From Burkholderiales bacterium (GTDB lineage: Bacteria > Pseudomonadota > Gammaproteobacteria > Burkholderiales > SG8-39): 64,000 nucleotides of DNA. The position numbers and the translations under genes were made by a program. The stretch covers positions 6,094-70,093 of the forward strand of contig JADGRQ010000005.1 of NCBI GenBank assembly GCA_017880775.1, read 5' to 3'. The notes under the pieces are model-generated. The model was not told the origin of the DNA. It did no database searches and saw nothing but the letters and a program-made list of their open reading frames with translations. Every line of letters starts with the position of its first letter. The stretch's first letter is position 1. Below are positions 13,776 through 51,484 of this stretch, one piece after another.

Positions 13776-13851
13776 TGGGGTGGCGGACGGGATTCGAACC
13801 CGCAACAACTGGAATCACAATCCAGGACTCTACCGTTGAGCTACCGCCACC
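13776..13851 (-). tRNA. tRNA-His (anticodon GTG), with encoded G-1 and CCA
   Basis: Hand-folded cloverleaf GGTGGCGG/TAGCTCAACGGTAGAG/CTGGA-TTGTGAT-TCCAG/GCGGG-TTCGAAT-CCCGT/CCGCCACC-CCA. Near-identical in architecture to recalled E. coli tRNA-His. Confidence 0.95.
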
Positions 13852-13869
13852 GTTGCTGCACAAAACATC

Positions 13870-13946
13870 TGGCCTGCCCGGCGGGACTCGAACCCACAAC
13901 CCCCAGCTTAGAAGGCTGGTGCTCTATCCGGTTGAGCTACGGGCAG
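13870..13946 (-). tRNA. tRNA-Arg (anticodon TCT), CCA encoded
   Basis: Acceptor CTGCCCG/CGGGCAG, anticodon arm CCAGC-CTTCTAA-GCTGG, T arm GTGGG-TTCGAGT-CCCGC. Confidence 0.93.
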
Positions 13947-13964
13947 TTCCCGTCGCCTCCAGGC

Positions 13965-14041
13965 TGGTCGGGGTGGAGAGATTCGAACTCCCGACATCTT
14001 GCTCCCAAAGCAAGCGCGCTACCGGGCTGCGCTACACCCCG
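13965..14041 (-). tRNA. tRNA-Pro (anticodon TGG), CCA encoded
   Basis: Acceptor CGGGGTG/CACCCCG, anticodon arm CTTGC-TTTGGGA-GCAAG, T arm CGGGA-GTTCGAATC-TCTCC region. Confidence 0.93.
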
Positions 14042-41484: not shown

Positions 41485-42330
41485 ATGTCCATGCCAGCAT
41501 ACGCGCGCCCTGCCCGCCTCGAGGACGCCTTGCAGGTGCTGAAGCGTGGCAATACGACGATCCTCGCCGGTGGCACGGATTACTACCCCGCTCACGCAGA
41601 CAAGCCGCTGCGCGAAGACATCCTCGATATTTCCGCAATCCGCGGCCTGCGCGGCATCTCGGACGGCCGGGACCACTGGCGCATCGGCGCAACCACGACC
41701 TGGACCGACCTGATCGAAGCGAAACTCCCGCCGCTGTTCGACGCGCTCAGGCTCGCGGCACGCGAAGTCGGCGGCGTGCAGATACAGAACCGCGGCACGG
41801 TCGCGGGCAACCTGTGCAATGCCTCGCCCGCGGCCGACGGGATCCCTCCCCTGCTTGCCCTTGACGCGCAAGTGGAGATTGCGAGCGACGCCGGAAGCCG
41901 CCTAATCGCCCTCGAGCAGTTTGTCGTCGGCAACCGGCGCACCGTTCTCGGATCCGGGGAGTTGGCGACCGCCGTGATCGTGCCAAAGCCGAAGTGCAAT
42001 GCCCGCAGCCACTTCCTGAAGCTTGGAACGCGCAAATACCTCGTCATCTCGATCGTGATGGTGGCGGCGACCATCGAGCACGCGGGCGGCAAGGTGCGCG
42101 CCGCACGCATCGCGGTCGGCGCCTGCTCTCCGGTGGCGCGGCGGCTGAAGAAATTGGAGGCCGCTCTCGTCGGCGAACAACTGGATGCCGCTCTCGGTGC
42201 CAAGGCGCTCGCATCGCACCTCCAGCCGCTCTCGCCGATCGACGATGTGCGCGCGAGCCGCGGCTATCGCACCGAAGCCGCGCTCGCACTGGTGAGGCGC
42301 ACCCTCGATCAGCTTGGGGCGATCACGTGA
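41485..42330 (+). CDS. Xanthine dehydrogenase-family FAD-binding (medium, CoxM-like) subunit
   Basis: 281 aa from ATG 41485. ILAGGTDYYP and NRGTVAGNLCNASPAADG FAD-binding motifs. Confidence 0.85.
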   Translation: MSMPAYARPARLEDALQVLKRGNTTILAGGTDYYPAHADKPLREDILDISAIRGLRGISDGRDHWRIGATTTWTDLIEAKLPPLFDALRLAAREVGGVQIQNRGTVAGNLCNASPAADGIPPLLALDAQVEIASDAGSRLIALEQFVVGNRRTVLGSGELATAVIVPKPKCNARSHFLKLGTRKYLVISIVMVAATIEHAGGKVRAARIAVGACSPVARRLKKLEAALVGEQLDAALGAKALASHLQPLSPIDDVRASRGYRTEAALALVRRTLDQLGAIT

Positions 42331-45095
42331 GCCGGCCGCCCGTTGGTTTCAAGGTCAACGGCAAACGCATGCGCTTCAATGGCGCACCCATGGCGCGCCT
42401 GTCCGACGTGTTGCGGGACGAACTCGGGTTGACGGGCACCAAGATCGGTTGCAACGCGGGCGACTGCGGCGCGTGCACGGTGCTGCTCGATGGCCGGCAG
42501 GTCTGCGCCTGCCTCACGCCGGTCGGCCAGGTCGAAGGCCGCGAAGTGCTGACCGTGGAAGGTCTCGCGCGCGACGGCAAACTCTCCGCGCTGCAAGTCT
42601 CGTTTCAGAAGCACGGCGCCGCGCAATGCGGCATCTGCACGCCTGGCGCGCTGATGGCCGCCACTGACCTGCTCGCCCGCGTGCGCCGGCCGAACGCGGA
42701 CCAGGTGAAGGAGGCGCTCGGCGGAGTGCTGTGCCGCTGCACCGGCTACCAGAAGATCATCGAGGCCGTCATGGATGCCGCCGGCTCGCCCGCGATTCCT
42801 CGAGCACCGGCCGCGGAAGGGGCCATCGGTGCGCGCGTTCCGAAGATCGATGGCATCGCCAAGCTCACGGGTGCGGAGCGCTTCGGTGCGGACGCGATTC
42901 CGAAACAGGCGCTGTGGCTGCGCGTCGTGCGCTCCCCTCATCATCGCGCCCGCTTCACGATCGGCGACCTGGACGATGTCCTGCGGCACGCCCCGGGCCT
43001 GGCGCGGATCCTGTCCGCGCGGGACGTGCCCTCCAACGGCTTTGGCATTTATCCGAGCGTCAAGGACCAGCCAGTGCTCGCGGACGGGGAGGCGCGTTTT
43101 CGCGGCGAGGCAGTGCTTGCGCTGGTCGGAACGCGCGAGGCGGTCGAGGGACTTGACGATGCCGGCCTGCGGATCGAATACCAACCGCTGCCGCCGGTGA
43201 TGGGTCTCGATGCCGCAATGGCCCCCGGCGCGCCGCTGGTGCAGCCGGCGAAGCCCGGCAACCTGCTGCAGGACGGCGGCGTGCGCAAAGGCGATGCAGC
43301 GGCGCAGTTCGCGCATTGCGCAGCGCTCGCCGAAGGCTGCTTCGAAACCGCGTTCGTCGAGCACGCCTATGTCGAGCCCGAGGCCGGGTGGGCGGAACGC
43401 AAGGGCGACCGGATCGAAATCCACGTCACCACGCAGACGCCCTACATGGATCGCGACGAAGTGGCCGTGGTGATGAAGCTCGCGCCTGAGCAAGTGCGCA
43501 TCGTGCCGACTGCGTGCGGTGGCGGCTTCGGCGGAAAACTCGATCTGTCGGTGCAGCCGCTCATCGCGCTTGCCGCGTGGCTGACGCATAAACCCGTCGC
43601 CTGCATTTACACGCGCACGGAAAGCATGGCTTCGACCACCAAGCGGCATCCGTCGCGTATCCACGCGAAGTTCGGCTGCGATGCGCTCGGGCGACTCCTC
43701 GCCTGCGAAGTCGACGCGGATTTCGATACTGGCGCGTACGCGAGTTGGGGTCCTACGGTGGCGACGCGCGTTCCGATCCACGCGACCGGGCCCTATTCGG
43801 TGCCGCACGTCCGGACGCGAGGACGCGGATTTTTCACGCATTGCCATCCTTCCGGCGCGTTTCGCGGCTTCGGCGTTCCGCAGGGAGCGATCGCTCATGA
43901 GGCGATGATGGACGAACTCGCCGACCGGCTCGGCATCGACCGGTTGGAAATGCGCCGCCGCAATGCGCTGAAAGCGGGCGACCGGACCGCGACCGGCCAG
44001 TTGCTCGAGCATTCCGCGGGGCTGCTCGACTGCCTCGATGCGCTGCAGCCGCACTGGACGAGGATGAATGCCGAGTGCGCGCGGTTCAACCAGCAGGCAG
44101 CGCGCGCCGGCGACGCCTTGCGCCGAGGCGCGGGCATCGGCTGCATGTGGTACGGCATAGGCAATACATCGCTGTCGAACCCCTCGATCATTCGGGTGGG
44201 GCTTTCGCGTACCGGAAAAATCACGCTCTACAACGGCGCCGTGGACATCGGCCAGGGATCCAATACCATCCTCAGCCAGATCGCCGCCGACGCGCTCGGC
44301 CTGCCGATGAGCGATTTTCTGGTCGTGATGGGCGATACGGACCGGACTGCGGACGCCGGCAAGACATCGGCGTCGCGGCAGACTTTCGTGTCCGGAAATG
44401 CGGCAGAGTTTGCAGGCACGGACCTGCGCAGGAAAATCTTCCTCGCCGCCGGAGCGCCAGAAGGCGAGTGGCGCGACCGGCGCTACCGGCTTTCCGCTGA
44501 GCGCGGCGCGGTGGTGTTCCGCAAGGATGGCATCACCCATCGCCTCGAACTCGGCGCGCTTCCCGGTGACACCGACCGCGACGCGCTCACTGGCACGGGG
44601 ACCTTCGATCCACCGACCACGCCCTCCGATCAAGACGGCCAGGGCGTGCCCTACGCGACCTACGCGTTTGCCGCGCAAGTCGCACAGGTGGAAGTCGATC
44701 TGCAACTGGGCACAACGCGCGTGCTGCGGCTCGTCGCGGCGCATGACGTCGGTCGCGCCATCAACCCGATCCAGGTCGAGGGACAAATCCAGGGCGGCAC
44801 CGTCCAGGGCCTCGGCCTCGCGCTGATGGAAGAATATGTTCCGGGCAGGACCGAAAACCTGCACGATTACCTGATTCCCACCATCGGCGACGTTCCGCAT
44901 ATGGAGTGCATCCTCATCGAAGATGCGGAGCCGCTCGGCCCGTCCGGCGCGAAGGGCGTGGGCGAGCCGGGGTTGATTCCGACTGCGCCGGCGATCCTGG
45001 GCGCGATCCATGCGGCCACCGGCGTGCGCATGCGGCAGGTGCCGGTGCTGCCGCACCGCCTGCTCGCAGAGCTGCGAAAACATGCGCGACCCTGA
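42327..45095 (+). CDS. Fused [2Fe-2S] (CoxS-like) and molybdopterin-binding (CoxL-like) subunit of a xanthine dehydrogenase-family hydroxylase
   Basis: 922 aa from GTG 42327 (GTGA overlap). Ferredoxin CNAGDCGACTV...C and a second cluster CGICTPG...CRCTGY, followed by the a/b-hammerhead and Moco domains (GGGFGGK, GVGEPG). Confidence 0.88.
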   Translation: MSRPPVGFKVNGKRMRFNGAPMARLSDVLRDELGLTGTKIGCNAGDCGACTVLLDGRQVCACLTPVGQVEGREVLTVEGLARDGKLSALQVSFQKHGAAQCGICTPGALMAATDLLARVRRPNADQVKEALGGVLCRCTGYQKIIEAVMDAAGSPAIPRAPAAEGAIGARVPKIDGIAKLTGAERFGADAIPKQALWLRVVRSPHHRARFTIGDLDDVLRHAPGLARILSARDVPSNGFGIYPSVKDQPVLADGEARFRGEAVLALVGTREAVEGLDDAGLRIEYQPLPPVMGLDAAMAPGAPLVQPAKPGNLLQDGGVRKGDAAAQFAHCAALAEGCFETAFVEHAYVEPEAGWAERKGDRIEIHVTTQTPYMDRDEVAVVMKLAPEQVRIVPTACGGGFGGKLDLSVQPLIALAAWLTHKPVACIYTRTESMASTTKRHPSRIHAKFGCDALGRLLACEVDADFDTGAYASWGPTVATRVPIHATGPYSVPHVRTRGRGFFTHCHPSGAFRGFGVPQGAIAHEAMMDELADRLGIDRLEMRRRNALKAGDRTATGQLLEHSAGLLDCLDALQPHWTRMNAECARFNQQAARAGDALRRGAGIGCMWYGIGNTSLSNPSIIRVGLSRTGKITLYNGAVDIGQGSNTILSQIAADALGLPMSDFLVVMGDTDRTADAGKTSASRQTFVSGNAAEFAGTDLRRKIFLAAGAPEGEWRDRRYRLSAERGAVVFRKDGITHRLELGALPGDTDRDALTGTGTFDPPTTPSDQDGQGVPYATYAFAAQVAQVEVDLQLGTTRVLRLVAAHDVGRAINPIQVEGQIQGGTVQGLGLALMEEYVPGRTENLHDYLIPTIGDVPHMECILIEDAEPLGPSGAKGVGEPGLIPTAPAILGAIHAATGVRMRQVPVLPHRLLAELRKHARP

Positions 45096-46530
45096 AGACG
45101 CTCCGGAAAGCACCGATCCGATCAGCGCGGATGTCATCCGCTGCGACGCCTGCCCGGTACTGTGCCGCATCCGCAAGGGACAATCCGGCGCCTGCGACCG
45201 GTACGCCAATGCCGACGGCAGGCTGTTCAGGGTCGATCCGCTGGTGATCCTGCAGCGTACGCTCGATTCGGGCGGAAAGTTCGTGCCATTTCTCGACCCA
45301 AAACCCTGGAACGGTGAAATGATCCCGGCGGCGAATACCTTCGTGACCGGGATCGGCGCGACCACCACCTATCCGGACTACAAGCCTGCGCCTTTCATCG
45401 TTTCCTCGAAATCTGCCGGCGTCGACATGGTCACGGTGGTGACCGAAGGCATCTTCAGCTACTGCGGATTGAAGATCAAGATCGACACCGACCGCTATCT
45501 CGGGCCCGAGCAGGCCGCGGTACGCGTCGACGGCGAGCAGGTCGGGCATGTCACTACGGCCGAGTACGGGTCGCAGATGCTCGCGCTCGGCGGCGTGCGA
45601 CACCTGACCGGCGGCAGCAAGAAGGAAGGCAACGTCACCTGCGAGGCGATGCTCAAGCTCTCCAACAAGCAGGCCGTTGAGCTCGCCATCGACGGCGGCT
45701 CAAAAGTGCGGGTGCAGGCCGGCGCCGCGCCCATCGTCAACGGCGAGCAAGAGGAACGCATGCGCGTGGGCTGCGGCTCCGCGACGATCGGCATCTTTGC
45801 GAAGCAGTGGTTCGGGCACTGCGATGAAGTGATCGTCGTCGACGATCACATCACGGGCGTGCTCACCGAGCATCAGGCCGGGCGCTTTCTCGACATGCGT
45901 CCCGGAGGGATCCGCGTGCGCGGGCGCAAATCCACGCCGGGACGCTACTTCAAGGTCGCCGAGCCCGGCATGGGCTGGGGCGGCACCAACATCACCAAGC
46001 CGCTGTCGATCATCGAAAAGATCGACCCGAAGATCGCGTGGCCAGGCATGCGCCTGCTGATGGTCTCGACCACCGGAGAGGATGCGGCGTGGTTCGTGCT
46101 CGATCGAGACCTCAAGCCGCAGCCCGCCGCAATGCCCGATGCGGTGAAGCGGGTCGTCGAGCGGATCGCGGAGAACTGCGAGCCCGCGTTGTGCAGCGTC
46201 CTCTTCATGGGCGGTGCCGGCGGGTCGCTACGCGCGGGCGTCACCGAAAATCCGGTGCGGCTCACGCGCTCGGTGAAGGATCTTTTCACCCGGGTGACCT
46301 GCGGCGGCGCACCGGTGTATGTCTGGCCCGGCGGCGGCATCACCGTCATGGTCGACGTGCTGCGCATGCCGGACAGGTCCTTCGGCTACGTTCCGACCCC
46401 GGCGCTGGTGCTGCCGATCGAATTCACGATGACGCGCGACGTCTATGCGGAAATGGGCGGCCACGTCGGCAATATCGTGGCGCTGGAGGAAGTTCTGCGC
46501 ACCACCCGGCACGAGGTCCGGAGCGCGTGA
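45082..46530 (+). CDS. Cys-rich 482-aa protein of the family I recall being labelled 6-hydroxynicotinate reductase-like (function uncertain)
   Basis: The ATG at 45082 overlaps the upstream gene by 14 nt. N-terminal C-x2-C-x3-C-x10-C (IRCDACPVLCRIRKGQSGACDRY). Coding-like composition throughout. The family label comes from memory only. Confidence 0.5.
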   Translation: MRDPEDAPESTDPISADVIRCDACPVLCRIRKGQSGACDRYANADGRLFRVDPLVILQRTLDSGGKFVPFLDPKPWNGEMIPAANTFVTGIGATTTYPDYKPAPFIVSSKSAGVDMVTVVTEGIFSYCGLKIKIDTDRYLGPEQAAVRVDGEQVGHVTTAEYGSQMLALGGVRHLTGGSKKEGNVTCEAMLKLSNKQAVELAIDGGSKVRVQAGAAPIVNGEQEERMRVGCGSATIGIFAKQWFGHCDEVIVVDDHITGVLTEHQAGRFLDMRPGGIRVRGRKSTPGRYFKVAEPGMGWGGTNITKPLSIIEKIDPKIAWPGMRLLMVSTTGEDAAWFVLDRDLKPQPAAMPDAVKRVVERIAENCEPALCSVLFMGGAGGSLRAGVTENPVRLTRSVKDLFTRVTCGGAPVYVWPGGGITVMVDVLRMPDRSFGYVPTPALVLPIEFTMTRDVYAEMGGHVGNIVALEEVLRTTRHEVRSA

Positions 46531-47432
46531 ACGGTCCGGTAAGCGCTCGGTTCCCGGACGGACGGCTGCATCTGCAGCACGGGCCGATCGATCTGCTGAT
46601 CGAGGCGTTCGGCAAGCGGGACGAAGTCGAAGCTGCGTACCGGCAGGCGTGGGACCGGTTTCAGGACATTCTGCAGATGCTGGTCGATGAGCTTGCGATG
46701 CTGCGCGCGCGGGTCGGGCCTGCGTATCCGCTCGCGCGCGGGCCGGTGGCGAAGCGGATGGTGGCTGCCGTGTGGCCGCATCGCGACGTGTTCATTACGC
46801 CGATGGCTGCGGTGGCGGGCGCGGTGGCGGAGGAGATGCTTGAAGCGATGTGCGCGGGGCGCAGATTGCGAAAAGCCTATGTCAACAACGGAGGCGATAT
46901 CGCGCTTTGGCTCGGAGAGAGTGAATACTTCCGCGCAGGTGTCGTGGAGAACATCGCAGCTCCCGCGATCGGCGCGAGCGTCCCGATCCATTCGTACGAC
47001 GCGGTACGCGGCATCGCCACCTCTGGCTGGAAAGGTCGGTCGCAATCGCTCGGCATTGCAGATGCGGTGACGGTGCTTGCGCGGACCGCTTCTCAAGCCG
47101 ATGCCGCGGCGACGTTGATCGCCAATGCGGTGAACGTGGAACATCCGGCGATTCGCCGCATGCCGGCTTGCGCCGTGAAGGAGGATTCCGATCTCGGTCA
47201 CTTGCCGGTCACGGTGGAAGTCGGGGAATTGCCGCGGGAGGTTGTGCGCAGTGCGCTCGCCAATGGTTTCGCTGTCGCGCGCCGCATGCAGGCCGCCGGG
47301 CTGATCGATGCGGCCTATCTTGCGCTGCAGGGCCAAGCTCTGGTTGTCGCGTCGCCGACGCTCGTTGGCTACGGCAACGAATCCACCGGACTTCGCACGC
47401 CGCCGCCGCCGACCTTGAGCACGTGGGTGTAA
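46527..47432 (+). CDS. UPF0280 (ApbE-like superfamily) protein
   Basis: 301 aa from GTG 46527 (GTGA overlap). Contains [13 protein letters not shown] and [11 protein letters not shown] segments that I associate with UPF0280. The last 64 nt overlap the 3' end of the intI remnant on the other strand. Confidence 0.55.
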
Positions 47433-48049
47433 GTCACGGCGCGCTGGAAGGTCTGGTCGTACATATGGTGTCTGCGCACTACACCCGAGCGCGGATCGAC
47501 AGAATGATCGGCCTGTGGAAACACCCAGAACCATGTCCACGATGCGCCGGCGCGGGGATACTTGCGATCCAATGCGCCCGGCATCGACACACCGCTGCGC
47601 CCGGCCTCGCCGTCGGCCGACCAAAGAACCCGGGCCCGCGCCAATTGTTCGCGCAAAGCAGGCACCAGCGTCAGAGGCAGCATGACCGAGCGGTCCTTGA
47701 CGCCCTTTCCGGCTCGAATCACGATGGTGCACTGCTCGAAATCAACGTCCTTCACGCGCAACTGCAAGCCTTCGGTAATGCGCATGCCGGTGCGTTGATA
47801 CGGCCACATTACGCTCGTTGGCCAGCCAAGACAGAAACGCCTCCACCTCGGGCCCGCCTATCTCGCCGGGTGCCGGCGACCGTGGAAGAAAATGAACGCC
47901 CGTATCCAGTGGACGTACGCATCCTCGGTACGTATGCTGTAGTGGAGATAGTGGATGCGTTCACGCACTTGGTCCAACAGCCGGGCCGAGCGCAACGGCG
48001 GCAACTGCGCGGTCGGTCGGCCTGGACGAAGTGGGATGCCGGTTTTCAC
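47369..48049 (-). pseudogene. intI: Integron integrase intI, inactivated (premature TAG/frameshift plus two internal deletions)
   Basis: ORFs 47858..48049 (MKTG...[47 protein letters not shown]) and 47369..47809 ([15 protein letters not shown]...[17 protein letters not shown]...[37 protein letters not shown]) are colinear with recalled IntI1. A bridging segment [25 protein letters not shown] lies in a third frame. Confidence 0.85.
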
Positions 48050-48061
48050 GGTTTGTTAGTA

Positions 48062-48077
48062 CTGTATGGATACACAG
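48062..48077. promoter_or_regulatory. LexA (SOS) box, CTGT-N8-ACAG
   Basis: CTGTATGGATACACAG within the 20-mer TACTGTATGGATACACAGTA. It lies 13 nt upstream of the intI GTG start and overlaps the candidate -10 element. Confidence 0.65.
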
Positions 48078-48104
48078 TATATGGCCGGGAAAGCCTGAAA
48101 GCAA
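48076..48104 (-). promoter_or_regulatory. Candidate PintI promoter
   Basis: Minus strand reads TTGCTT-N17-TATACT. The -10 hexamer is overlapped by the LexA box. Confidence 0.4.
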
Positions 48105-48150
48105 GCGGGTTCCGGGCCATCATGGTCGCCAGGATAGGGCGCACACGGCC

Positions 48151-48190
48151 ATGCTACGCAGCAAAGCTGTCGCCCGATATTACGTTAGGT
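48151..48190 (+). other. attI recombination site (simple site), crossover predicted at G48184|T48185
   Basis: ATGCTACGCAGCAAAGCTGTCGCCCGATATTACGTTAGGT compared with recalled attI1 ATGTTACGCAGCAGGGCAGTCGCCCTAAAACAAAGTTAGGC. It ends in a GTTRRRY core (GTTAGGT). Confidence 0.6.
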
Positions 48191-48196
48191 TTTCCG

Positions 48197-48757
48197 GTGA
48201 GCGACGCGCGAGCAATCATAGAGAAGCTAAACGAAGAGGGCTTAGCGGCTCGCGCGCACTTCCAGATTTGGTGGGCTCTTCGAAATCTGGCCCTTCCCGA
48301 TTTCTACGACGCAATGAACGACTATTCCTACGTAAATTTCTTTCACGCCTCAAACGCGGGACACTACAAGCTGTTCTTCTTGGCGCTATCAAAGATCTTT
48401 GATCGCGACGCTCGTACCTCGGGTATCTCAAACCTACGCGAGGCACTCCGTAGCGAAGGACACAATAGCATCGCCGATCAGTTGGAAAAGCGGCTTTCGC
48501 CATTGACGGCAGTAGTTGCTCGGCTCATGGCCATTCGCAATCAGACGATCGTCCACAATGACCGCAGCTTGTCCCGGGAAAAGGTCTACGAGATAAACGG
48601 CATTACACCAGACCAAGTTCGCGATCTAATCAATGACACGTGCGCAACCATCAATGAAGTGGCACGCGGGCTTGGGGTTCCTGAAGGTCTATTCGATGAT
48701 CGATACGACCGGGCGACCATCGCGATGCTTGAGGCACTTCGACGCGGGAAAATCTAA
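48197..48757 (+). CDS. Cassette 1: HEPN-like (AbiU2-like?) protein with Rx5H motif, function unknown
   Basis: 186 aa from GTG 48197, the first start after the attI core (ATG 48122 would lie upstream of the crossover point). The motif RNQTIVH at 48536-48556 fits HEPN R-x4-6-H. AT-richer codon usage than the host. Its stop codon lies inside the attC R'' core. Confidence 0.5.
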   Translation: MSDARAIIEKLNEEGLAARAHFQIWWALRNLALPDFYDAMNDYSYVNFFHASNAGHYKLFFLALSKIFDRDARTSGISNLREALRSEGHNSIADQLEKRLSPLTAVVARLMAIRNQTIVHNDRSLSREKVYEINGITPDQVRDLINDTCATINEVARGLGVPEGLFDDRYDRATIAMLEALRRGKI

Positions 48758-48838
48758 CATGCAGCTGGTGCGGACGGGCCGGATGCGTCGTACAAGTTCA
48801 ACCATTGTGCGGGCCCGCCGCACAGCACAACGTTAGAC
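48752..48838 (+). repeat. attC site 1 (87 bp)
   Basis: R'' ATCTAAC ... R' GTTAGAC. L'' CTGGTGCGGACGGGCC pairs with L' GGGCCCGCCGCACAG, leaving two extrahelical bases (G and A). Confidence 0.85.
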
Positions 48839-48890: not shown

Positions 48891-49424
48891 ATGCAGTTCA
48901 AGCACAGAGACGCAATGGACTCCGACCTTCCTCGGGTCGTCGAAATCTACAACTATGCGGTAGCCTCACGCATGTGCAGTTGCGATCTCGAGCCAACGAC
49001 CGTTGAAGCGCGAAGACCCTCGTTCTTATCTCACACTCCAAATCACAGGCCGTTTTGGGTCGCAGAAGACCCTGCGAAGCCCCAACAAGGCGCTATCGGC
49101 TACCTTGGCTTCTTCCACTTTATGAACGAGCGGCCAGGATACTTCATCACAGCTGATATTGCGATCTACTTGCACCCGAAGTACCAGAACAGAGGGTTGG
49201 GCACATATCTTCTTGCCAAGGCAATTGAGCGGTCGCCGTCTCTCGGAATAGAAACACTGACGGCAACGATCTTCGCTAGCAATGGCGCCAGCATTCGTCT
49301 GTTCGAAAAAATGGGCTTTCAGCGCTGGGGCTTAATGCCCCGAGTTGCTCGCCTGGAGGGAACTGAGAAGGACCTTGTTCTTGTCGGCCGCAGGATCACA
49401 GAGCCATTGCCAAGAGCGGCCTAA
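48891..49424 (+). CDS. Cassette 2: GNAT-family N-acetyltransferase (phosphinothricin/MSO acetyltransferase-like)
   Basis: 177 aa. Acetyl-CoA motif HPKYQNRGLGTYLL and the typical N-terminus DLPRVVEIYNYAV. Alternative start at ATG 48915. Confidence 0.85.
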   Translation: MQFKHRDAMDSDLPRVVEIYNYAVASRMCSCDLEPTTVEARRPSFLSHTPNHRPFWVAEDPAKPQQGAIGYLGFFHFMNERPGYFITADIAIYLHPKYQNRGLGTYLLAKAIERSPSLGIETLTATIFASNGASIRLFEKMGFQRWGLMPRVARLEGTEKDLVLVGRRITEPLPRAA

Positions 49425-49496
49425 CCCGCTGGTCAACCGGACCAACTCCAGTCGGCTTCGCCTCCTTCCGTTGGCCGGTTACCAGCAACGTTAGCC
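49419..49496 (+). repeat. attC site 2 (78 bp)
   Basis: R'' GCCTAAC ... R' GTTAGCC. L'' CTGGTCAACCGGACCAAC pairs with L' GTTGGCCGGTTACCAG, leaving two extrahelical bases (C and A). The stop TAA lies inside R''. Confidence 0.85.
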
Positions 49497-49535
49497 GTCA
49501 GATACCGCTCGATCACATTGGCCGTTAGGAACACT

Positions 49536-49961
49536 ATGGACAAGCAATCGTTCTTCTGGAAGATCATGGCCGGTGAGTTGCCTCCGCCCAGAGCTGCCAC
49601 AACACTCGGTATCGTTTTCAAGCACATTGATGCTGCCGCAGGCACGATCGAAGTCGAACTGCAAGGAAGGCCAGAGTTCACGAATCCGGCAGGCAACATC
49701 CAAGGCGGCTTTCTGGCTGCAATGCTCGATGACACGATGGGTCCCGCCCTGGCTGCCACGTTGAAAGAAGGTCAATTCGCACCGACGCTGAACCTCAATC
49801 TATCATTCCATCGGCCAGCGATTGTTGGTTCACTCGTCGGTAAAGGTCGCGTGGTGAAGCGCGGAAAGGATGCCTGTTTCCTCTCAGGTGAGCTGTATCA
49901 AGAGGGCGAGCTTGTTGCTTCGGCCACTGCCACGGCAATCATTCGCGCTATTCCAAAATGA
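49536..49961 (+). CDS. Cassette 3: PaaI-family hotdog-fold thioesterase
   Basis: 141 aa from ATG 49536 (AGGAA RBS). NPAGNIQGGFLAAMLDDTMG motif and a hotdog C-terminal strand pattern. Confidence 0.85.
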   Translation: MDKQSFFWKIMAGELPPPRAATTLGIVFKHIDAAAGTIEVELQGRPEFTNPAGNIQGGFLAAMLDDTMGPALAATLKEGQFAPTLNLNLSFHRPAIVGSLVGKGRVVKRGKDACFLSGELYQEGELVASATATAIIRAIPK

Positions 49962-49962
49962 C

Positions 49963-50037
49963 GGCTAACCATCACTCAACGCGACGCCGCTCATGCTCCG
50001 CTCTCCGTGGTATCACCGCTCGCGGCGCGCGTTAGCT
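49963..50037 (+). repeat. attC site 3 (75 bp, atypical geometry)
   Basis: R'' GGCTAAC is the exact complement of R' GTTAGC(T). GCGACGCCGC pairs with GCGGCGCGC, leaving one extrahelical A. The spacers are very asymmetric (11 nt against 0), so the fold is non-canonical. Confidence 0.55.
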
Positions 50038-50147
50038 CCACGTTGTCCTTATCACGCGAGCGCCGAGAATGCTCAACCGCGGTGTGTTAATCGTCCGTCC
50101 GAAGCAGCCGTATCTCGCCTGATCTGCCGGAATGGAAGATAGTCTTG

Positions 50148-50384
50148 ATGCCGACAATCCTGCGTGACGGGCCGTTCCGATTCTTCTTCTACGCGAGCGA
50201 TCGGGACGAGCCACCGCACATTCACGTCGAACGCGACGATAATGTCGCCAAGTTCTGGCTCGACCCGGTGCGGTTACAAAGCAGCGGCGGATTCTCCAGG
50301 GTGGAGATCAACCAGATTGACGGACTGGTGAATGAGCACCAGCGCGAACTGTTGGAGGCTTGGAATGAGTATTTCCGCGGTTGA
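50148..50384 (+). CDS. DUF4160 domain-containing protein (putative toxin-like partner)
   Basis: 78 aa. The PPHIHV motif and overall pattern are as in DUF4160. Overlaps the next ORF by 20 nt. Confidence 0.75.
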   Translation: MPTILRDGPFRFFFYASDRDEPPHIHVERDDNVAKFWLDPVRLQSSGGFSRVEINQIDGLVNEHQRELLEAWNEYFRG

Positions 50385-50715
50385 ATTTGAAATTCCCCTC
50401 GCCCGGACGGCCAGGGTCACGAGCGACACCCTACAGGTCGATCTATCCGATGGTCGCACCATCTCGGTTCCGCTCGCGTGGTATCCGCGACTGGTTCATG
50501 CCACGGCGGAAGAACGCAAAGGATGGCGGCTGATTGCACGCGGTCGGGGAATTCACTGGGCGTCCATTGACGAAGACATAAGCGTGGAGGGTCTCCTCGC
50601 CGGAAGAGCATCCGGAGAAAGCCAGTCCTCATTCAAGCGATGGCTGAGTTCCCGCTCATCGCGACTGGCACGGTCAACCGCGCTGCGCAAGAACGGCGCG
50701 CGCCGACAACGCTGA
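50365..50715 (+). CDS. DUF2442 domain-containing protein (putative antitoxin-like partner)
   Basis: 116 aa from ATG 50365. VDLSDGRTISVPLAWYPRLVHATAEERKGWRLIARGRGIHWASIDEDISVEGLL matches the DUF2442 pattern. The Ser/Arg-rich C-terminal tail looks like read-through. Confidence 0.7.
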   Translation: MSISAVEFEIPLARTARVTSDTLQVDLSDGRTISVPLAWYPRLVHATAEERKGWRLIARGRGIHWASIDEDISVEGLLAGRASGESQSSFKRWLSSRSSRLARSTALRKNGARRQR

Positions 50716-50839
50716 CGTTACATCGCAAAGCGAAACCTGAGTTCGGCGATCTGATCTGGAGAGGGACACAGCTGAGTCGCAAACTTCGCCGCAGGTGACA
50801 GGCCCCGGCGGGCGACCATGATTCCCAAGGAGGCAGGAC

Positions 50840-51484
50840 ATGTCCAAGCTGCGCTTCAAGATCTCGATGTCGCTCGACGGCTTTGTTGCCGGCCCCAGCC
50901 AGAGCGTGGACAACCCCCTTGGGATCGGCGGCGGGCGCCTTCACGAGTGGGCCTTTCAACTTGCGGTGTTTCGCGCGCTGCTTGGTCTTGAAGGCGGCAA
51001 GGTCAACGAAAGCACCCCGGTCGTCGAGGAGTCGCTCGCCAACATCGGCGCCACGCTGATGGGGCGCAACATGTTCGGCGGCCACCCCGGCCCGTGGGAT
51101 CCCGGGAAACCGTGGAACGGCTGGTGGGGAGTCAACCCGCCGTTCCATCACCCCGTGTTTGTACTCACGCATCACGCGCGCGAACCACTCGAACTCGAAG
51201 GCGGAACGACATTCACGTTCGTCACGGACGGCATCGCGGCGGCGCTCGCACAGGCGCGTCATGCCGCCGGCGGCAAGGATGTATCGCTCGGCGGCGGAGC
51301 GAGAGCCGCACAGCAGCTTCTCGCGACCGGCCTGGTGGACGAGATGGAGATCAATCTCGTGCCGACGCTCCTCGGCAGCGGTGAGCGGCTTTTCGATGGT
51401 GTCGGCGACGATCTGCACGGGCTCGTGCTCGTGCGGACGGTCGCCGCGCCAAAGGTAACGCACCTCAAGTTCGCAAGGCGCTGA
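50840..51484 (+). CDS. Dihydrofolate reductase-family protein (RibD C-terminal domain)
   Basis: 214 aa with a GGAGG RBS. MSLDGFVAGP ... GLVDEMEINLVPTLLGSGERLF pattern. GC is back at host level. Confidence 0.82.
   Translation: MSKLRFKISMSLDGFVAGPSQSVDNPLGIGGGRLHEWAFQLAVFRALLGLEGGKVNESTPVVEESLANIGATLMGRNMFGGHPGPWDPGKPWNGWWGVNPPFHHPVFVLTHHAREPLELEGGTTFTFVTDGIAAALAQARHAAGGKDVSLGGGARAAQQLLATGLVDEMEINLVPTLLGSGERLFDGVGDDLHGLVLVRTVAAPKVTHLKFARR

Follow-up and report, generated by a model that had tools for sequence, protein, structure and literature searches.

Does the first gene of the integron cassette array in this Burkholderiales DNA encode a phage-defence RNase, and how would such a protein be held in check if its cassette carries nothing else? 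An earlier note on the window (the whole 64-kb stretch of DNA analysed here) had read the gene as that of an AbiU2-type HEPN protein and as a candidate defence or RNase cassette, and had raised the possibility that it is a lone effector of a new type.

The gene and its protein family

Translation of 48197-48757 on the plus strand led to a protein of 186 aa plus stop codon with a GTG start and confirmed the motif RNQTIVH at 48536-48556 (plus strand), the codons of R114 and H120 lying at 48536-48538 and 48554-48556. The GTG start column was common to 38 of 40 aligned homologues, and a homologue of 82% identity also starts with GTG at the same position. A mechanically called open reading frame of 529 aa (47168-48757) was ruled out as the gene, as the homologues place the start at 48197; it reaches upstream to 47168 because the antisense of the integrase gene intI is free of stop codons. 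In the 12-nt leader before the start codon, at most a weak AGG ribosome-binding element could be recognized.

Pfam analysis assigned residues 3-159 to PF18734 (HEPN_AbiU2) at E=1.8e-14; the score of 54.1 bits exceeds the gathering threshold of 26.8 bits, in agreement with the AbiU2-type HEPN reading. Among 5.8 billion proteins, 144 homologues were detected, nearly all of about 187 aa and nearly all with PF18734. Across 40 homologues with 48-97% identity to the window protein, R114 and H120 were invariant, and likewise E14, H21, W25, W26, K66, D69 and Y131. When 1.84 billion cluster representatives were searched with a profile, 634 clusters reached E<=0.001, and 240 reached E<=1e-10; as 139 of the 150 best family representatives have a length of 250 aa or less, most family members are stand-alone proteins. 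When the comparison was extended to a broad set of 69 full-length family representatives, which share only 18-56% identity with the window protein, no columns other than R114 and H120 stayed invariant. All 69 matched PF18734 and have a spacer of five residues between R and H, and the residue after R, already pointed out as a typical Asn, is N, H, S or D in 65 of them. The HEPN motif has been described as Rx4-6H, and the pattern found for AbiU2 fits that description (PMC3710099). The R/H pair, conserved throughout the family, may thus be regarded as the predicted catalytic signature, as had been suggested before.

Single family members gave sub-threshold cross-matches to RiboL-PSP (5.7e-5), Csm6_HEPN (6.8e-4) and Abi_C (7.2e-3), the last of these coming from one distant AbiU2-family member and not from the window protein. 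Searches of NCBIfam and PHROGs with the window protein gave no match or only noise, PADLOC gave no match for it, and tblastn against plasmid and phage collections found nothing. From the Pfam match and the conservation of the R/H pair among homologues, both of which had been proposed as checks, the window protein almost certainly belongs to the AbiU2 family of HEPN proteins, as a stand-alone member.

Predicted structure

The AlphaFold2 model (pLDDT 87, pTM 0.85) consists of long helices at residues 3-31, 46-67, 90-118 and 138-159, helices 2 and 3 being separated by a short helical insert (77-86). The long helix 3 ends with R114, and H120 belongs to the loop behind it. According to the 2013 survey of HEPN proteins, the motif occurs at the end of helix 3 or in the loop after it, and an insert between helices 2 and 3 is typical (PMC3710099), so that the predicted secondary-structure topology agrees with the canonical HEPN description. 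When the model was compared with PDB and BFVD by Foldseek, no match at E<=0.001 was obtained and only insignificant helical-bundle matches appeared, the best HEPN toxin being 7ae8 with E of about 3 and a TM score of about 0.3. Sequence-profile searches of the PDB, run with the close as well as with the broad alignment, gave nothing but designed or coiled-coil proteins; no solved structure and no demonstrated RNase activity is known for any member of the AbiU2 family. The expected HEPN four-helix core is therefore backed by the modelled helix topology, while a significant structural or sequence match to a HEPN protein in the PDB was not obtained, and the support for the fold is one of topology only.

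The integron around the gene

Divergent from the gene lies an intI pseudogene of a class-1-like integron integrase (47369..48049, minus strand), two fragments of which match Phage_int_SAM_4 and Phage_integrase. Three-frame translation located a frameshift near 47858. The remnant is about 70.6% identical to intI1 at the nucleotide level and retains the integron-specific segment ending in ...WFWVF; BLASTP against IntI1 indicated that much of the N-terminal region and the counterpart of IntI1 residues 261-309 are missing. This last segment contains the catalytic H277, R280 and H303 (IntI1 numbering), and its loss means that the integrase is dead.

Alignment of 47840-48200 with a class 1 integron allowed the regulatory sites to be assigned. 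Inside the intI remnant, TGGACG-N17-TATGCT (47910..47938, plus strand) aligns column for column with class 1 TGGACA-N17-TAAGCT, which is known as the weak PcW variant, and is a candidate homologue of the cassette promoter Pc. It was also found by a relaxed hexamer scan; a stringent scan for sigma-70 consensus promoters found none and did not report this candidate. Upstream of intI, a LexA-box-like palindrome at 48062..48077 (no strand assigned), CTGTATGGATACACAG, aligns with class 1 CTGTTTTTTTGTACAG and is the sole CTGT-N8-ACAG match in the window. The attI site (48150..48190, plus strand) aligns with attI1 (ACGCAGCAnnGCnGTCGCCC...GTTAG) and ends in the core GTTAGGT (48184-48190), which sits 7 nt upstream of the start codon, with the recombination point between G48184 and T48185. 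From the alignment of attI and Pc to class 1, the AbiU2-type gene is attI-proximal and downstream of a Pc-homologous site; its cassette directly follows the attI core, as the earlier note had placed it. The 'most highly expressed position' claimed there would be a prediction, as the Pc homologue survives but resembles a weak class 1 variant, the consensus scan found no promoter and the integrase is dead. Overall, we may be looking at a relative of the class 1 integron that has decayed in the chromosome of an uncultured, betaproteobacterium-like host. It has Pc hexamers, a LexA box and an attI site that can be aligned with those of class 1; unlike the class 1 platform, it is chromosomal, its integrase is inactivated and its cassettes are not resistance genes.

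Cassette 1 (48185..48832, plus strand) comprises 648 bp with the 12-nt leader, the AbiU2-type ORF and an attC site at 48752..48838 (plus strand). This site, with the stop codon contained in its R'' box ATCTAAC and with GTTAGAC as its R' box, is an imperfect palindrome of 87 nt with a fold energy of -40.2 kcal/mol, in which the two ends are paired. GTTRRRY core sites, the 3' attC palindrome and the adjacent divergent intI with attI identify the unit as an integron cassette. Three further cassettes follow on the plus strand, namely a GNAT acetyltransferase (48891..49424; Acetyltransf_1, E=5.4e-16; attC at 49419-49496), a 4HBT-type thioesterase (49518..49961; 4HBT, E=8.9e-11; attC at 49963-50037) and a DUF4160/DUF2442 pair (50145..50715; E=3e-19 and E=1.1e-20, respectively), for which a possible degenerate attC near 50672-50722 was recognized by eye only. 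The DUF4160 and DUF2442 genes overlap, an arrangement like that of a toxin-antitoxin module. The GC content falls from about 65% in the flanking genes to 53-55% across the array, with 53-57% in the first cassette genes. Right after the array, a RibD_C (dihydrofolate-reductase-like) gene at 50840-51484 has a host-like GC content of 65.7% and no detectable attC behind it, and may either belong to the host or represent an old cassette with an ameliorated composition.

Since cassette 1 holds only one ORF, no partner is encoded within it, as had been noted; besides this ORF there are only the leader and the attC. There is room for no second ORF, and no AbiUi partner was found. Pfam analysis of the neighbours (GNAT, 4HBT, DUF4160, DUF2442, RibD_C) revealed neither an MNT nor another antitoxin-like gene.

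On the other side of the integron, the flanking host genes at 41994-47432 resemble a nicotinate-catabolism cluster, with molybdopterin oxidoreductase, 6-hydroxynicotinate-reductase-like and UPF0280-like genes. Their best matches in the plasmid database, from Rhizobium and Sulfitobacter replicons, are about 67% identical, and the best named match of a flanking substrate-binding protein is a 'MAG Betaproteobacteria bacterium' protein with 88% identity. Farther away, three tandem tRNA genes (His-GTG, Arg-TCT, Pro-TGG) are located at 13776-14041 on the minus strand.

Relatives, mobility and selection

A search of metagenomes for homologues, as the note had proposed, led to 96.6%-identical copies of the cassette on two groundwater contigs (L016 and L017). 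They are homologous to the window over 48187-48781, so the homology begins 3 nt from the attI crossover and stops inside attC. On L016 (3001-5440, identical to L071 6001-8440) the AbiU2 cassette is part of an attC array without adjacent integrase, together with a small unknown cassette and a cassette for a protein of 417 aa, which matches the PADLOC defence candidate PDC-S54 with E=5.6e-127. PDC-S54 was the match of one of ten neighbours tested, the others being mobile-element genes. A RelE-like ORF and a PhdYeFM-like gene are also present in this related array. The R' cores that flank the AbiU2 cassette in L016 look mutated (ACGGAGG, AATAAGG). Another homologue (P0001, 98% identical) belongs to a 90%-identity cluster that includes the betaproteobacterial MAG protein MDH5578258.1.

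Two more loci deserve mention. L048 (136-423) carries a truncated copy of the cassette with 89.6% identity, which ends at about residue 93 and is preceded by ACGTTTGG instead of attI; an upstream motif, GAACGGAG, is common to this copy and L016. The 82%-identical homologue (L015, 7492-8561) has no recognizable attC and follows a low-GC gene for a predicted membrane protein of 153 aa, in an otherwise housekeeping region of a 142-kb contig.

For a broader view, homologue loci were examined for R''...R' boxes at the stop codon combined with an arm-pairing score, a home-made heuristic and not IntegronFinder. An attC-like site at the stop codon was detected in 21 of 52 loci (about 40%), with a threshold that was passed by 5% of shuffled and 5.8% of real-sequence controls. 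An alternative detector, which required paired ends in the MFE fold, missed obvious sites and was dropped. Mobile elements of other kinds are indicated for further homologues, whose neighbours include genes for TniQ, MobA/MobL, HNH, KilA-N and polyvalent proteins.

All-against-all BLASTP of the ORFs within 2.5 kb revealed no conserved neighbour or partner across 16 loci. The only neighbour shared by any two loci was a 4HBT thioesterase, encoded in the window (49518-49961) and in a Methylibium MAG locus (L002, 2493-2921), in both cases downstream of the AbiU2-like gene; the two proteins are 33% identical and are probably coincidental cassette cargo.

This result bears on the question whether the protein might be a non-toxic accessory factor. 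In Lactococcus, AbiUi alone confers phage resistance, and added AbiUii (AbiU2) lowers it (PMC13064643), so the family name AbiU2 does not imply a defence effector. By analogy, the cassette protein might bind or process a specific RNA, or might tune a system encoded elsewhere as AbiUii attenuates AbiUi, and the 2013 survey indeed lists AbiU2 in operons with Sel1-repeat, R-M and Bxe_C0808-type HEPN genes (PMC3710099). We nevertheless regard such a modulator as quite unlikely. No conserved neighbour accompanies this subfamily in the 16 loci, a gene that travels as a one-gene cassette must work independently of its genomic context, and the strictly invariant R and H argue for catalysis over binding alone. 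The family PF18734, which is typified by AbiUii of Lactococcus lactis and with which the window protein was compared via the Pfam profile, shares with it the match over residues 3-159 and the R-x5-H motif with a polar residue after R; in contrast to lactococcal AbiU, no AbiUi-like partner occurs here and the protein is one of the stand-alone cassette proteins of about 187 aa in Proteobacteria. Lactococcal AbiUii dampens the activity of its partner and is not itself the effector.

With regard to selection, a dN/dS of 0.11 was calculated against the 82%-identical homologue at a dS of 0.96, which is near saturation. The window protein carries the consensus residue in each of the 44 columns whose conservation among relatives is at least 90%. 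The gene is under purifying selection, and from its sequence it looks functional and mobile. A very unlikely alternative would be that the gene, though intact in appearance, has been left behind in a dead integron and is expressed too weakly in this genome to be of use. The intI pseudogene without the counterpart of IntI1 residues 261-309, the lack of a promoter in the consensus scan and the short leader with at most a weak AGG would be in line with such a silent relic. Against it stand the low dN/dS and the absence of any deviation at the 44 conserved columns, the retention of the Pc-homologous hexamers and attI, and the persistence of near-identical copies in other metagenomes.

Relation to known systems

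AbiU2 was classified as a HEPN family in 2013, and the same survey reported that integron cassettes also carry another HEPN family (PDB 3jrt), for which an RNase role was proposed (PMC3710099). More recently, a preprint on a Vibrio mimicus library described cassette HNPBCG_15845 of strain MB461, which encodes a HEPN AbiU2 domain and was carried by 94% of the phage survivors. Its presence went along with resistance to T4/T7, attempts to clone it by itself failed, and its product is predicted to form a dimer; it was tested only together with two other cassettes (bioRxiv 10.64898/2026.03.17.712381). The failure to clone it alone hints at a dose-dependent toxicity. A marine subgroup of 194-aa proteins led to no named Vibrio homologue. 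As AbiU2 was already catalogued and HEPN cassettes were described in 2013, and as an AbiU2-domain cassette was reported in 2026, the cassette protein does not represent a new type; the idea of an undescribed type of solitary effector is not supported for a family whose members mostly stand alone. Integron cassettes as reservoirs of phage-defence genes, to which the earlier note had pointed, are by now established (Darracq 2025 and Kieffer 2025, summarized in PMC13434031).

The window protein resembles HNPBCG_15845, by domain description, as an AbiU2-domain protein encoded in a cassette of a chromosomal integron; the Vibrio gene belongs to a large chromosomal integron, in contrast to the short class-1-like array with a dead integrase described here. 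The 'Integron cassette HEPN' family of 3jrt is similar in that it combines an Rx4-6H HEPN domain, integron cassettes and a proposed RNase function. It is nevertheless a different HEPN family, from Gammaproteobacteria, and the PDB sequence-profile searches found no connection between the two. In HEPN-MNT modules the toxin is also a small HEPN RNase with R-x4-6-H, a role that is predicted here as well, but neither cassette 1 nor the neighbouring cassettes encode an MNT nucleotidyltransferase. AbiD/AbiF, AbiJ and AbiV likewise consist of one gene with a HEPN effector, for which a logic of abortive infection has been proposed. ApeA, a defence gene for a single HEPN protein, follows the same architecture and proposed logic. 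All of these belong to different HEPN families, and, unlike for the protein described here, experimental phage phenotypes exist for several of them.

Proposed mechanism

By analogy to other HEPN proteins with an intact motif, the AbiU2-type protein is most likely a metal-independent endoribonuclease (PMC3710099), and as in other HEPN RNases a homodimer would bring two R-x5-H motifs together. Having no promoter of its own, the cassette gene would depend for its transcription on the Pc-like promoter within the intI remnant. Upon phage infection the protein might then cut host or phage RNA, and the resulting growth stop or cell death would block the spread of the phage, as expected for abortive infection. 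Without an antitoxin, control would have to be intrinsic and/or dose-based: an auto-inhibited resting state or substrate specificity on the one hand, and the weak Pc together with the cassette position on the other, may keep the protein in check. The HEPN_AbiU2 match, the invariant R/H pair and the lack of a partner in the cassette or of a conserved neighbour support the candidate RNase or defence cassette, consisting of a lone gene, that had been suggested for this locus. For the predicted combination of RNase activity and phage defence by abortive infection, which is drawn from analogy and is the best supported of the readings, we consider the chances of being right or wrong to be about equal.

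Toxicity might also serve a purpose other than defence. As a stress or dormancy toxin or an array-retention gene, the protein would need no phage trigger and would lower translation under stress or penalize loss or rearrangement of the array, a role that was proposed for the HEPN domains of integron cassettes in the 2013 survey (PMC3710099). Toxin-like cassettes are common in arrays, as illustrated by DUF4160/DUF2442 here and by the RelE-like and PhdYeFM-like genes in the related array, and the uncloneable AbiU2 cassette of the preprint suggests toxicity. We still judge this reading to be unlikely, as a post-segregational or stabilizing role normally needs a labile antitoxin, which is neither present nor conserved, and as phage resistance is what the sole functional report on an AbiU2-domain cassette deals with.

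If the abortive-infection mechanism is extended from this locus to the family, the stand-alone AbiU2-like proteins of about 187 aa could be widespread, partner-less and integron-borne abortive-infection RNases that are missed by defence-finding models. Their toxicity would be checked by the expression level, as set by cassette position and Pc strength, and by an intrinsic auto-inhibited state instead of an antitoxin. We put this generalization forward tentatively and consider it doubtful as a whole.

Significance

As the family, its association with cassettes and the phage phenotype of a relative have already been reported, the conceptual advance would be modest. The locus adds a well-delimited environmental example to the emerging view that integron cassettes store small phage-defence functions consisting of a single gene. 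Proteins of the AbiU2 type are repeatedly carried by cassettes, with an attC-like site at the stop codon in about 40% of the sampled homologue loci, and PADLOC misses the window protein. Because the family is without biochemical or structural characterization, the compact protein of 186 aa, of which just two residues are invariant across the family, would lend itself to studying how a HEPN toxin can be restrained without an antitoxin.
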